Below, one piece after another: positions 15,015 to 17,930 of a stretch of 64,000 bases of DNA (position 1 is the stretch's first letter; every line of letters starts with the position of its first letter). The notes below the pieces were generated by a model, which saw nothing but the letters and a program-made list of their open reading frames with translations, searched no databases and was not told where the DNA came from. Position numbers and translations under genes: made by a program. This stretch comes from Bacilli bacterium (lineage in GTDB: Bacteria; Bacillota_I; Bacilli_A; RF39; UBA660). Location: NCBI GenBank assembly GCA_017541885.1, contig JAFXYF010000014.1, positions 1,930 to 65,929 of the forward strand. Reading direction: 5' to 3'.

Positions 15015-17096
15015 GTGAAAGTTGTTCTGCAAGATGGTATTAAAGATTGTGGTATTTGCTGTCTCTTATCAATCATCAGGTATTATGGAGGAGAAGTACC
15101 TAAAGAGATTTTAAGAGAAATGACAAATACTACAAAAGATGGAGTATCATTATATAACTTGTTAGAAGCTTCAAATAATTTAGGATTTGAATCAATAGGT
15201 GTATCAGGTAATCTAGAAGATATAGCTCTAAATAACTTACCCTGTATAGCTCATGTTCAAGTAAAAAACAATCGTAAACATTTCATTGTAATATATGAAA
15301 TAAATAAAGAAAGTGAACAAGTAATTGTAATGGATCCTGCAAAAGGAAAAAGAAAATTATCTTTTTCTGAATTTAATTTACTATCTAGTAAATATTATTT
15401 ATTCTTAAAACCAAAAAAGAAGATTCCGATACTCAAGAAAAAAAATATAGTTTACCAAAATATAATAAAATTATTCAAAGAACACCAACAATTATTAATA
15501 GTTATTTTTCTATTAACAACAAATTATTTCATATTAAATATTATAACTTCTTTTCATTTTAAGTACCTAATAGAGTACACAATAAATAAAAATGTTTCAA
15601 ATAATCTCTTAAAACTATCAATTTCATTATTAATAATCTATTTAATGAAAAATATAATAATGACATTAAGAGATATTTTATTAAATAAATGGAGTTCTCT
15701 TTTTACACTTGAAGTAACAACATTTCTCTATCAACAAATTCTCTTGCTTCCATATCTCTATTTTAAAAATAGAACAACAGGAGAAGTAATATCTAGATTC
15801 CAAGATCTTGGAAATATTAGAGATTACTTAACAATTCTTTTTAGTACTATTACTATAGACTTAGTATCTTGTATTATCTTTTTGATATTAATGTGGAACT
15901 ATCAAAAAACAATATCTTCCCTGATTTGTATAATATTATTAGTATCTGCACTATATACAATTATTATTTCAAAAAGTAAAAAAAGAAAAATGAAAATGAT
16001 TAAACAAAAAGAAGATATTGCAAACTCTTATATAATTCAAGGAATAACTAATGTAGATACTATTAAAGGTAGTCATATTGAAAAAAGATTAATCGATAAA
16101 TTTAATTTAAACTATAAGTCTTTACAAGAAAGTATATACAACTATCTAAATTTTCATCATATTGAAAATTTTATTAAAAACAATCTACAAGATGGTATCT
16201 TTCTAATTCTTTATGGATTAGGTAGTTATTATTGTATAAGAGAGAATATGAATCTAAGCAGTTTAATTATTTATTCTTCATTTGTAAATTATTATTCAAC
16301 CAGTTTTTCAAATATTATTAATTTAATTAGTAATTATCATTCATACAATTTAACACTAGATAGAGTAGAAGAATTATTCATGTTAGATAAGGAGGAGTTT
16401 AAGCATAATTATTTCTATCTACCATATCAATTAAAAGGAGATATTTGTATCCATAATTTAAGTTACAAGATAGGAACAAAAGTAATATTAGATAATTTAA
16501 ATATAAACATAAAGCACGGAGAAAAAGTATTATTATGTGGAGATTCTGGTAGTGGTAAATCAACTCTAATGAAAATGTTAATGAGATACATTCAAATAGA
16601 TTTTGACAAAATTAAGATTGCAAACATAGATATAAATCATTATCACCTTCAAAACATAAGAAATAATATTACTTATCTATCAAGTAACGAATATCTATTT
16701 CAAGATTCAATTAAGAATAATATTTGTATGTATCAAGATTATCAAGAAGAAGATATAAAAGAAGTCTGCGATATATGTTTCGTAGATGAAATACTAAAAA
16801 GTAAAAATATAACATTAGATTCAATTATAGAAGAAAATGGATTTAACTTTAGTAATGGTGAAAGACAAAGAATTATTTTAGCTAGAAGTCTTCTTAGAAA
16901 CACTAGTATCTATATTTTAGATGAAGCTTTAGCACAAATAGATATAAATAAAGAAAAGAAAATCTTAGAAAAGTTATTTACTTATCTAAAAGATAAAACA
17001 GTTATTGTCATATCACATCGTTTTAACAATAAAAAAGTATTTGATAGAGTTTTAAAATTAGAAAAAGGAAAAATAAATGAAACAAAAAAACTATGA
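15015..17096 (+). CDS. Peptidase-C39-domain ABC exporter for double-glycine peptides (ComA/LagD/SunT type)
   Basis: N-terminal C39 motifs (QDGIKDCGICCL, KHFIVIY, VMDPAKG), a six-TM domain, Walker A GDSGSGKST, signature FSNGERQR, Walker B IYILDEA. Confidence 0.9.
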   Translation: MKVVLQDGIKDCGICCLLSIIRYYGGEVPKEILREMTNTTKDGVSLYNLLEASNNLGFESIGVSGNLEDIALNNLPCIAHVQVKNNRKHFIVIYEINKESEQVIVMDPAKGKRKLSFSEFNLLSSKYYLFLKPKKKIPILKKKNIVYQNIIKLFKEHQQLLIVIFLLTTNYFILNIITSFHFKYLIEYTINKNVSNNLLKLSISLLIIYLMKNIIMTLRDILLNKWSSLFTLEVTTFLYQQILLLPYLYFKNRTTGEVISRFQDLGNIRDYLTILFSTITIDLVSCIIFLILMWNYQKTISSLICIILLVSALYTIIISKSKKRKMKMIKQKEDIANSYIIQGITNVDTIKGSHIEKRLIDKFNLNYKSLQESIYNYLNFHHIENFIKNNLQDGIFLILYGLGSYYCIRENMNLSSLIIYSSFVNYYSTSFSNIINLISNYHSYNLTLDRVEELFMLDKEEFKHNYFYLPYQLKGDICIHNLSYKIGTKVILDNLNINIKHGEKVLLCGDSGSGKSTLMKMLMRYIQIDFDKIKIANIDINHYHLQNIRNNITYLSSNEYLFQDSIKNNICMYQDYQEEDIKEVCDICFVDEILKSKNITLDSIIEENGFNFSNGERQRIILARSLLRNTSIYILDEALAQIDINKEKKILEKLFTYLKDKTVIVISHRFNNKKVFDRVLKLEKGKINETKKL

Positions 17097-17481
17097 GAAA
17101 AAAACTCTAGTATTATTTTTGACAATATTATTATGGATCATTGAAATATGTTTTATTATCTATTTATCTAATATAAGAATAATAGAATATAAATTATTTC
17201 AAGTAATAATGATTAGTAATAAAGAAGGAGTAGTTTATTTATCTAAAGAAGATAAAAAATTATTTTATAAAAGTAGTTATTATTACTATAAAGATAAAAA
17301 ATATTACTTTGAAATTATAGATGAAAAAAAAGTAAATGATCTAATAGAAATAAAATTAAAAACATCTATCAAAAATCTAAAAGAAAATGATATTATAACA
17401 ATCTCGATAGAGAATAAAAGAATAAGTGAACTAGAAACTATTATAGATATATGGGGTGGTGATAAAAATAGTAAAGGTTGA
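17077..17481 (+). CDS. Small single-TM protein, possible minimal export accessory protein
   Basis: It overlaps the ABC gene by 20 nt. N-terminal TM LVLFLTILLWIIEICFIIYL followed by a roughly 100-aa soluble domain. Function is inferred only from position. Confidence 0.4.
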   Translation: MKQKNYEKKTLVLFLTILLWIIEICFIIYLSNIRIIEYKLFQVIMISNKEGVVYLSKEDKKLFYKSSYYYYKDKKYYFEIIDEKKVNDLIEIKLKTSIKNLKENDIITISIENKRISELETIIDIWGGDKNSKG

Positions 17482-17614
17482 TAATACTCAGTTAGAAGAA
17501 ATAAGAGGAGGAGCTGTACCATATATTTGGATTGGAATTGGAATTGCTGCACTGGTAATATTCTTATCAGGAGTAATTGATGGAATTTCTAATCCTAAGG
17601 AGTGTGGAACATGA
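17456..17614 (+). CDS. Double-glycine-leader peptide A (bacteriocin- or pheromone-like); start codon uncertain (GTG 17456/17459 or ATA 17468)
   Basis: Frame open from 17447. Encodes ...VKVDNTQLEEIRGG|AVPYIWIGIGIAALVIFLSGVIDGISNPKECGT. The leader aligns with that of peptide B. The stop overlaps the peptide B start (ATGA). Absent from the ORF track. Confidence 0.6.
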   Translation: MVIKIVKVDNTQLEEIRGGAVPYIWIGIGIAALVIFLSGVIDGISNPKECGT

Positions 17615-17787
17615 CAAATGTAAATAATGAAACACTAGATAAAATATCTGGAGGTGATTACTCTTATGTCTCAGGACCAATTATAAGTGCAGTGGTCGCA
17701 GTCATTAAACTAATAAGAGATGCCGGCTATGATTTAGGCTCCGGATTTAGACGAATGGCAGATGGTGAAGTATGCCCTCTAAAGTAA
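17611..17787 (+). CDS. Double-glycine-leader peptide B (bacteriocin- or pheromone-like)
   Basis: AAGGAG (17597-17602) lies 8 nt upstream of the ATG at 17611. Encodes MTNVNNETLDKISGG|DYSYVSGPIISAVVAVIKLIRDAGYDLGSGFRRMADGEVCPLK. Lies downstream of the C39 ABC exporter. Confidence 0.75.
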   Translation: MTNVNNETLDKISGGDYSYVSGPIISAVVAVIKLIRDAGYDLGSGFRRMADGEVCPLK

Positions 17788-17930
17788 AAGAAGGATTAAC
17801 CATCATAAAAAACATAGTAATAGTGGTATTAGTATTACCATATATTCCTATGACAATTAATTTTTTCCATCAAAGTGGTAAATATGTAGGATTTTTTATC
17901 AAAAATATGTATTTTTTCGTAATTAAGTAA
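17772..17930 (+). CDS. Possible 52-aa hydrophobic protein (candidate immunity protein)
   Basis: The ATG overlaps the end of peptide B. Product MPSKVKEGLTIIKNIVIVVLVLPYIPMTINFFHQSGKYVGFFIKNMYFFVIK has one clear TM helix. The SD is weak (GGTGA with a short spacer). Below the ORF-track length cutoff. Confidence 0.35.
   Translation: MPSKVKEGLTIIKNIVIVVLVLPYIPMTINFFHQSGKYVGFFIKNMYFFVIK

Follow-up and report, generated by a model that had tools for sequence, protein, structure and literature searches.

A conserved five-gene cassette upstream of rpsU encodes a candidate two-peptide double-glycine export system in uncultured, AT-rich Bacilli

Results

Five overlapping genes lie between tRNA-Ala and rpsU

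In a 64-kb stretch of DNA from a Bacilli bacterium (the whole of it is called the window below; its GC content is ~22%), we characterized a locus that a first reading of the letters, the original prediction, had described as a two-peptide bacteriocin-like or signalling system with a C39 exporter, sitting between tRNA-Ala and rpsU. The location proved correct, and the cassette found there is made of five open reading frames (ORFs), which are listed here with the genes that flank them (aa, amino acids; GG, double-glycine; SD, Shine-Dalgarno):

15015-17930, + strand: the five ORFs of the cassette (exporter, 134-aa protein, peptide A, peptide B and ORF3)
15015-17096, + strand: peptidase-containing ABC exporter (PCAT), 693 aa, GTG start (Pfam, PDB alignment)
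17077-17481, + strand: 134-aa single-pass membrane protein, candidate minimal accessory (AlphaFold2, HMMER, NF045999)
17453-17463, + strand: SD-like GGGGTGGTGAT for peptide A, within the W-G-G-D codons of the 134-aa gene
17468-17614, + strand: peptide A precursor, 15-aa GG leader read from ATA 17468 and 33-aa mature part (TIGR03949, conservation)
17611-17787, + strand: peptide B precursor, 15-aa GG leader and 43-aa mature part, SD AAGGAG at 17597-17602 (25 homologous clusters)
17772-17930, + strand: ORF3, 52-aa basic membrane protein, pI 9.9, candidate immunity protein (conserved fifth gene)
14647-14722: tRNA-Ala, upstream of the cassette
17951-18218, + strand: downstream boundary, outside the system, with an rpsU promoter-like site (17951-17979) and rpsU (18015-18218)

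The exporter gene, the gene for a 134-aa protein with a single transmembrane (TM) segment and the two overlapping frames with GG leaders were all borne out, together with the ATGA at 17611-17614, the AAGGAG located 8 nt 5' of the peptide B ATG, the mature lengths of 33 and 43 aa, the GVIDG and GYDLG motifs and the position-for-position match between the two leaders, each of which is 15 aa long when counted from codon -15. The 52-aa ORF at 17772-17930, which was inside the range first considered yet undescribed there, is a conserved fifth gene. It had also been stated that both peptide genes are missed by the ORF track: public gene callers do predict peptide B (25 clusters), so that this part does not stand, while peptide A does often go uncalled, as does ORF3, for example in the gene calls on NCBI GCA_017511375.1.

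Since the five genes overlap or abut, their translation is probably coupled: the 134-aa gene shares 20 nt with the exporter gene and 14-26 nt with peptide A, and the ATGA joins peptides A and B. Downstream, the rpsU promoter-like site detected by a consensus scan reads TTGAAA, 17 nt, TG-TATAAT, and the same scan detected no terminator between ORF3 and rpsU.

Peptides A and B are conserved and mostly constrained in their mature parts

Related loci were gathered from a genome scan with the exporter (two close relatives), from peptide B (25 protein clusters), from contig look-ups, from one metagenome scan (30 loci) and from distant relatives of the 134-aa protein. About 35 distinct loci from uncultured AT-rich Bacilli of the gut and rumen carry the same cassette. 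In every locus that was long enough, tBLASTn recovered the order exporter, 134-aa protein, peptide A, peptide B, usually ORF3 and then rpsU, and this order was kept down to 55% identity of the exporter and 27% identity of the 134-aa protein. Both short frames are open in ~33 distinct loci and are kept wherever the exporter occurs, so that the original prediction withstands the check it had set for itself on their conservation in related genomes with the exporter.

The peptide A frame reads ...VVIKIVKVDNTQLEEIRGG in its leader and AVPYIWIGIGIAALVIFLSGVIDGISNPKECGT in its mature part, which begins with AVPYIW and ends with KECGT before the stop at 17614; its invariant positions are the GG, F32, G35xxxG39, P43 and C46. 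Peptide B reads MTNVNNETLDKISGG followed by the mature DYSYVSGPIISAVVAVIKLIRDAGYDLGSGFRRMADGEVCPLK, which begins with DYSYVSGP and ends with CPLK; among its 26 closer homologues, GG-D, G-P, A-G-Y-D-L-G-S-G (with G39-Y-D-L-G43), R-R and C-P are invariant, and the Cys is always four residues from the C-terminus. The GG was found in 26/26 sequences for each peptide, and the leader hydrophobic residues lie at -4, -7, -12 and -15. Over 33 distinct locus pairs, dN/dS was 0.21 for the mature part and 0.54 for the leader of peptide A, and 0.24 and 0.59, respectively, for peptide B. The net charge of the mature peptide ranges from -2 to 0 for peptide A in all 33 loci and from -2 to +2 for peptide B.

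The profile searches proposed with the original prediction gave a different outcome for each peptide. Peptide A scored 26.4 bits against NCBIfam TIGR03949 (class IIb, lactobin A/cerein 7B), over its curated cut-off of 21.5, and 21 of the 26 orthologues matched this model at E<0.01, with 22 of the 26 matching the lactococcin G-beta model. Peptide B matched no family, nor did its profile match any PDB sequence, and we regard it from its conservation pattern as a new peptide family. Because dN/dS is ~0.2, motifs are invariant, SDs are conserved and a curated family is matched, we consider that the short frames A and B are real genes that evolve under purifying selection.

One metagenome contig (P0002) has a 100-aa fusion in which peptide A runs as far as ...GVIDGIA and then continues, in the same frame, with residue 4 and the following residues of peptide B, so that the NPKECGT tail of peptide A is lost; this fusion is a deletion or an assembly artefact.

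ORF3, whose ATG overlaps the V-C-P codons of peptide B, was present in 40 fetched loci corresponding to 30 distinct sequences, with a dN/dS of 0.51. It has an M-(P/S)-x-(K/R) N-terminus, one TM segment, a G...G.F.(R/K)N.Y.F motif and its own conserved GxxxG, and Pfam and NCBIfam profile searches gave no family match for it. By its position and type, it is a candidate, and a probable, immunity protein. Elsewhere on the - strand of the window, 26 kb from the locus, a gene at 43926-44621 encodes an Rce1-like (CAAX/CPBP) intramembrane protease and adjoins a gene (42954-43913, also on the - strand) whose product has a type IV secretion system (T4SS)-pilin-like N-terminus. CPBP proteins are the immunity proteins for some class IIb bacteriocins. 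The end of peptide B, which is always C-P-L-x, resembles a CaaX box.

Peptide A probably starts at a near-cognate codon in many lineages

In a codon-by-codon alignment of the leaders, codon -15 of peptide A was ATG in nine loci, TTG in one and ATA, ATT or ATC in all others; the window has the ATA at 17468, which the original prediction had written as an "x". An SD-like motif was found 3-5 nt before this codon in the loci examined, in the form of AAGGTGAT, AAAGGAG or GGAGGTGA (GGGGTGGTGAT in the window). In some of the loci with ATG at -15, an in-frame stop is found immediately upstream, and the most distant loci have a canonical TTGGAGGTGAAA-ATG with the GGAGGTGA SD. The GTG or ATG codons found in the same frame at -18 and -19 sit inside the SD, and upstream starts are excluded in L002 (TAA at -16) and in L023 (TGA at -18), where the mature frame of peptide A is intact.

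The most economical reading of this alignment is that translation of peptide A starts at codon -15 in all lineages, probably from a near-cognate codon in many of them, which gives a 15-aa leader matching the peptide B leader position for position. The window frame is not strictly start-less, as an in-frame GTG is also present at 17456 and could be the alternative start. It is probably because of this non-canonical start situation that gene callers often miss peptide A, which is conserved in all loci and is represented by only 7 clusters in public protein data.

A full-length PCAT homologue is followed by a minimal membrane protein

Pfam assigned the Peptidase_C39 (1e-31), ABC_membrane and ABC_tran domains to the exporter, and its residues 5-690 align with PCAT1 of Clostridium thermocellum (PDB 4ry2, 2e-85) and with ComA of Streptococcus (8hf7, 3e-77). 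The C39 catalytic set is aligned throughout, with the oxyanion Gln, the Cys (DCG), the His (HFIVIY; HF(I/V)V) and the Asp (DPAKG; DP(A/G)KG), and the Walker A, Walker B and H-loop residues are conserved as well. In view of this homology and of what is known about how PCAT1 and ComA work, the exporter very probably processes and exports the two GG-leader peptides. Unlike these two transporters, the protein has FSNGE as its ABC signature, a GTG start preceded by a distant SD, and a score against NCBIfam TIGR01193 (354.7 bits) that is under the cut-off of 523.85, even if it is still a full-length PCAT1/ComA homologue; it is also always followed by a small MAG1140-like protein. It scored 290.6 bits against the Mycoplasma Mbov_0121 family (NF045998), under the cut-off of 500.

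The exporter start codon is GTG in 14/15 aligned loci and TTG in the other one. An N-terminal extension from the NTG that precedes the GGAGG was rejected: since this NTG is out of frame in the window and in six other loci (L013, L022, L031, L025, L026 and L040), the conserved GTG is taken as the start. The spacing from GGAGG to the start is 13-15 nt across loci (15 nt in the window), which is unusually long. In one contig (L011:1416-3482), the exporter is represented by two calls, of 571 and 102 aa, and in the otherwise identical L012:1423-3489 by a single intact one of 688 aa; the split call is a frameshift or a sequencing error.

The 134-aa protein was modelled by AlphaFold2 with 56 homologues (pLDDT 92) as a TM helix (residues 4-32) followed by a beta domain of ~85 residues, and the ectodomain modelled alone reached a pLDDT of 87. 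An exhaustive HMMER search returned 90 clusters of relatives, nearly all of 120-140 aa, most of which end with W-(G/E/D)-G-D (W-G-G-D in the window). The protein aligns end to end with the 126-position profile of the Mycoplasma MAG1140 family (NF045999), with E=0.011 and 15.9 bits for a cut-off of 35, and 19 of its 56 relatives match this profile, at best with 4e-6. Judging from these alignments, it is a distant relative, not a member, of this uncharacterised family. The small proteins of the two systems are alike in being single-pass and ~130 aa long, and the exporter and the small protein both score under the cut-offs of their Mycoplasma families. We found no functional literature on the Mycoplasma Mbov_0121/MAG1140 proteins, a locus tag being mentioned only in passing.

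The hypothesis that the 134-aa protein is a truncated HlyD/ComB adaptor was rejected, as it had no Pfam match and as Foldseek comparison of its two AlphaFold2 models with the PDB gave nothing at E<1e-3, the nearest membrane-fusion-like entry being BesA (E=0.33). Thus, the original prediction was right that no accessory gene of standard size is visible, in that the protein is not an accessory of the LcnD/ComB/HlyD type (~450 aa with HlyD domains), but it had overlooked that an accessory-like gene exists in the form of this MAG1140-like protein.

The cassette is inherited within the lineage

The original prediction had raised the possibility that the locus is an insertion between tRNA-Ala and rpsU. 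This did not hold: every sampled relative has the cassette at that place, including those of a sample anchored on the exact rpsU protein, in which six of seven distinct places have an intact cassette. The seventh (L047, five contigs) has a mobile element within peptide A. What lies upstream differs from locus to locus (tRNA-Ala, mreD or a Ham1-like gene) and the rpsU link is constant. Because this link never varies, we conclude from the gene order that the cassette is inherited within a lineage of uncultured Bacilli, with the metagenome-assembled genome (MAG) GCA_017511375.1 and many rumen metagenome contigs among its members, rather than being a recent insertion. The S21 protein (67 aa) encoded by rpsU keeps 100% identity between loci in which the exporters share only 61-86%.

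Along with a sortase and several small genes, the element of L047 (L047:2890-4773; compare L050:4380-4620) carries a large serine recombinase, in which the Resolvase, Recombinase and Zn_ribbon_recom domains are present. The right junction of the element is located within the codons V-D-G/I-A-N-P, between G and I, and from G-I-A-N-P onwards the sequence matches the intact allele again; lacking a stop codon of its own, the recombinase ORF continues into the frame of peptide B, resulting in a 627-aa recombinase-peptide B call. Another contig (L002, CAZHBS010000006.1), labelled "uncultured Muribaculaceae", has the cassette together with Firmicute genes (M50 SpoIVFB-like, yqfD) and probably comes from a mis-binned or mislabelled MAG.

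A structured RNA with a conserved loop precedes the exporter gene

The 300 nt upstream of the exporter, for which the original prediction had noted no RNA, were aligned from 15 loci. In most of them, we found in the same order, 5' to 3', a promoter, the block TCTTAGTCAtATATCACGCGtTTGATCAAGA, a hairpin followed by a T-run whose sequence changes between loci while its position is constant, a GAATAATAT region and the start codon. The corresponding features of the window are:

14799-14827, + strand: promoter-like site for the RNA (TAGTCA, 17 nt, TG-extended TATTAT; consensus scan)
14834-14944, + strand: structured RNA of ~110 nt (folds, covariance model)
14834-14842 paired with 14901-14909: P1 of the RNA
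14851-14860: P2 hairpin
14861-14899: P3 hairpin
14874-14886, + strand: conserved 13-nt loop of P3, UAUGUCACGCGUU in the window and UAUAUCACGCGUU in most loci
14916-14933: intrinsic terminator, with a U-run to ~14942
14960-15014, + strand: conserved region before the exporter, with a possible second promoter (nTGnnn, 18-19 nt, AATAAT at 14983-14988) and GGAGG at 14995-14999

The promoter of the RNA is conserved at the same distance in other loci, with a TTGTnn -35 and a TRTGnTAnnAT extended -10. When sequences from the 15 loci were folded independently, most gave a three-way junction and a terminator, with a long P1 helix whose sequence varies, a small P2 and a P3 bearing the conserved loop, in which TCACGCG is invariant in all 15 sequences and occurs once in the 64-kb window of this ~22% GC genome. 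The shuffle z-scores of single sequences were modest (-1.8 to -3). A first MAFFT alignment failed to align the 5' half of the RNA and was replaced by a covariance-model alignment. The covariance model, built from two sequences, found one copy in each of 16 RNA-bearing loci including the window (E from 1e-27 to 8e-3) and nothing credible elsewhere in 250 kb. In the resulting alignment, which is fitted to the model and whose counts thus lean towards the structure, 94% of cells were paired compared to 44-59% in slid controls, 28 of the 31 pairs were changed on both sides, the covariation score was 0.615 compared to ~0.1 in slid controls, and 0/500 shuffles reached the observed values; RNAalifold agrees with the structure. 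Since independent single-sequence folds give the same architecture, we argue that the modelled structure is real.

Searches of Rfam 15 found only tRNA and two chance sub-threshold matches in the window region at E<=1, and only tRNA at gathering score in six other loci. A search for the motif in viral contigs returned a single match, inside an unrelated phage coding sequence, and was discarded. The copies of the RNA in L011 and L002 lack P1, the RNA is absent from L001, L017 and L040, and searches with the motif or the covariance model also found none in L051 and L054. The GAATAATAT-N3/4-(T/A)GGAGGYGARAG region is kept in all 15 upstream regions. Because L001, L017 and L040 keep this region, preceded by a -35-like nTGnnn at 18-19 nt, the sequence at 14960-15014 probably holds a weak promoter of the operon itself.

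We compared two roles for this RNA, which may be either an attenuating leader or an independent small RNA of ~110 nt tied to the operon. Tentatively, and with somewhat less than an even chance, it would be a cis-acting leader (attenuator or riboswitch-like) in which a factor bound to the P3 loop sets the read-through into the exporter operon. As parts of this proposal, transcripts from the strong promoter at 14799-14827 would mostly end at the terminator (14916-14942) and the RNA would stand in for the missing kinase/regulator system. In 15 distinct loci, the promoter, three-way junction and terminator are indeed conserved directly before the exporter gene, no other occurrence of the RNA came up in the sequence searched, and its promoter is closer to consensus than anything between the terminator and the exporter gene. 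It also resembles the riboswitches and attenuators of Firmicutes by its promoter, its multi-stem junction closed by a covarying P1 and its terminator before a transporter operon.

It differs from these by having no Rfam 15 match, conservation in the 13-nt loop only, no identified antiterminator and a narrow distribution, as it is found only before this cassette. No conserved antiterminator pairing was visible by eye, and P1 and the terminator co-form in minimum free energy folds; a candidate antiterminator, the similarity between P3 and the terminator (AAGA/UCUU), was rejected because it is not kept in L022 and L031. Moreover, the conserved bases are located in one hairpin loop and not in the junction, an arrangement that points more typically to protein or RNA partners than to small-molecule aptamers, and the RNA-less loci that keep their own promoter-like region suggest a separate small transcript. 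Concerning a trans target of the P3 loop in the window, complement matches were no commoner than expected by chance, and the only near-perfect one was its own opposite strand. The UAUCAC(GCG) of the loop (14874-14886) complements the GUGAUA found in the SD region of peptide A (17456-17464) and also resembles the GAUCACC of the 16S rRNA 3' end; this loop/SD complementarity of only 5-6 bp could easily be due to chance.

Discussion

A class IIb-type architecture with unusual peptides

The proposal of a two-peptide bacteriocin-like or signalling system with a C39 exporter is supported by the TIGR03949 match, by the PCAT homology and by the conservation of both frames. Class IIb bacteriocins are defined by adjacent peptide genes in one operon, GG leaders of 15-30 aa, a dedicated ABC transporter and an immunity gene, to which an accessory protein whose role is unclear and a pairing of helices through GxxxG are added, and their production is either constitutive or controlled by a three-component system (PMC2850506). 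The cassette matches this architecture, as known for lactococcin G, plantaricin EF/JK and lactobin A/cerein 7B: two adjacent precursor genes in one operon, 15-aa GG leaders, GxxxG in both peptides, a small membrane protein gene after the peptide genes and, as for lactococcin G, a dedicated C39 ABC transporter in the same operon, with peptide A scoring over the TIGR03949 cut-off. In contrast to class IIb systems, the peptides are neutral or anionic with a single invariant Cys in each, peptide B falls in none of the described families, the accessory has 134 aa and is unrelated to LcnD/ComB, ORF3, which some lineages have lost, matches none of the known immunity families, the locus is fixed and vertically inherited next to rpsU, three-component genes are missing, and a structured RNA is located ahead of the operon.

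By analogy with class IIb systems, and with about an even chance in our estimation, the locus would be a self-contained operon for a two-peptide antimicrobial, with ORF3 as the immunity protein. According to this model, the C39 domain would cut after Gly-Gly, as known for PCAT1 and ComA, and the transporter would export the hydrophobic 33-aa peptide A and the 43-aa peptide B. The two peptides would then pair via their GxxxG helices in the target membrane and act as one unit against competitors, while the basic 52-aa ORF3, with a GxxxG of its own, would protect the producer, and the 134-aa MAG1140-like protein would assist the exporter in place of a large LcnD/ComB-type accessory. The single invariant Cys of A and that of B may even join the peptides by a disulfide, which we consider improbable; the review of class IIb bacteriocins makes no mention of cysteine (PMC2850506).

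Several observations weigh against this model or parts of it. Many relatives come from rumen metagenomes, assumed to be anoxic, and anoxic habitats disfavour extracellular disulfides. Class II bacteriocins are normally cationic, whereas neither of the mature peptides is; lactococcin G, for comparison, has cationic ends (PMC2850506). Peptide B has no family over cut-off, its score against NF038034 being 15.8 bits for a cut-off of 37, and its other matches are sub-threshold ones of the leader type. In most loci, the in-frame GTG/ATG at -18/-19 could start peptide A instead of codon -15. No similarity to HlyD, LcnD or ComB was detected for the 134-aa protein, nor any PDB fold match, and an essential immunity gene would not readily be expected to be absent, as ORF3 is, from 8 lineages in which both peptides are retained. 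Patchiness and diversification are often seen in bacteriocin loci, whereas this one is vertically inherited at a fixed place with strongly conserved mature sequences.

Alternative functions of the exported peptides

On sequence evidence, the peptides may form a bacteriocin or a signal, and their non-cationic nature together with the lineage-wide conservation leaves room for a non-antimicrobial function, even if we find it distinctly less probable than the antimicrobial one. In such a case, the same export machinery would deliver peptides that, instead of being weapons, serve as a conserved signal directed at the producer itself or as a factor in its physiology or development, for example as a cue between cells or a membrane-acting factor with a link to sporulation, and that have a conserved partner in the producer's own species. 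This function, which also comes out as doubtful when it is considered by itself, would fit with a cassette found at the same chromosomal position in all sampled relatives, next to division and sporulation genes (mreCD, M50 SpoIVFB-like, yqfC/yqfD), with mature peptides under strong purifying selection while the leaders drift, with an almost invariant peptide B core (AGYDLGSGxRR...CPL), with the neutral to anionic character of both peptides, with an ORF3 that is dispensable in some lineages and with the sub-threshold matches of some orthologues to ComC and induction-factor models.

The comparison with ComC/ComAB, BlpC and plantaricin A pheromones nevertheless reveals little more than a common leader type and exporter family, besides these few weak matches: here, two long hydrophobic GxxxG peptides are found instead of one short amphiphilic pheromone, and no cognate kinase or regulator is nearby. 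As initially predicted, no kinase or response regulator gene was present within ~4-6 kb in any locus, nor was an Rgg/PlcR type receptor gene, and the histidine kinase and response regulator Pfam families were missing from the genes called within that distance in at least 15 loci. Peptide A, with 33 aa and a dominant TM-like helix, falls in a bacteriocin family and is unlike known pheromones, and two co-conserved GxxxG peptides with a small membrane protein correspond to the class IIb pattern (PMC2850506). The L047 lineage tolerates a mobile element in peptide A, showing that the locus is not essential.

A more elaborate version, which we regard as speculative and improbable, is that the cassette, far from an ordinary bacteriocin island, is an ancient, lineage-defining two-peptide system in which A and B, neutral or anionic and with one invariant Cys each, are exported disulfide-linked or otherwise paired and act on a conserved partner not as a toxin but as a signal or developmental factor. 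Their expression would then be tied to structured RNAs of a class not described before, with a three-way junction, a terminator and the invariant UAUCACGCGUU loop, and to a conserved near-cognate start of peptide A (AUA/AUU/AUC) setting the A:B ratio. Finally, the idea that only the exporter is functional and that the short frames are chance ORFs or decayed remnants, which might be suggested by the lack of a conserved canonical start for peptide A, by the stops just upstream of its codon -15 in two loci, by the A-B fusion of P0002 and by the lineage with an interrupted peptide A, is effectively refuted by the conservation analysis, considering that both frames are open in ~33 loci with a dN/dS of ~0.2, invariant motifs, an SD before each and a curated-family match.

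Significance for uncultured Bacilli

These findings extend the two-peptide double-glycine class into an uncultured and very AT-rich lineage of Bacilli from the rumen and gut, and add to it what appear to be a new peptide B family, a minimal partner protein that is distantly common to Mycoplasma, an undescribed structured RNA and a probable case of non-AUG initiation. Peptide A and ORF3 are frequently missed by annotation, probably as a result of the non-canonical start and of the overlaps, so that similar loci are likely under-counted in metagenome surveys. The predicted monoisotopic masses (3385.84 Da for peptide A, 4600.38 Da for peptide B and 7984.20 Da for a disulfide-linked A-B heterodimer), the size of the cassette (~3.1 kb) and the shortness of the two peptides make the system directly testable by synthesis or heterologous expression. 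A locus of this type can evidently be stable, vertically inherited and strongly purified, which is unusual for bacteriocins and raises the question of which conserved target its peptides would have, while the covarying RNA is a new candidate for the regulation of peptide export in a system without the usual kinase/regulator module. The cassette would be of greater interest if the RNA turns out to be regulatory or the peptides to be a conserved signal.

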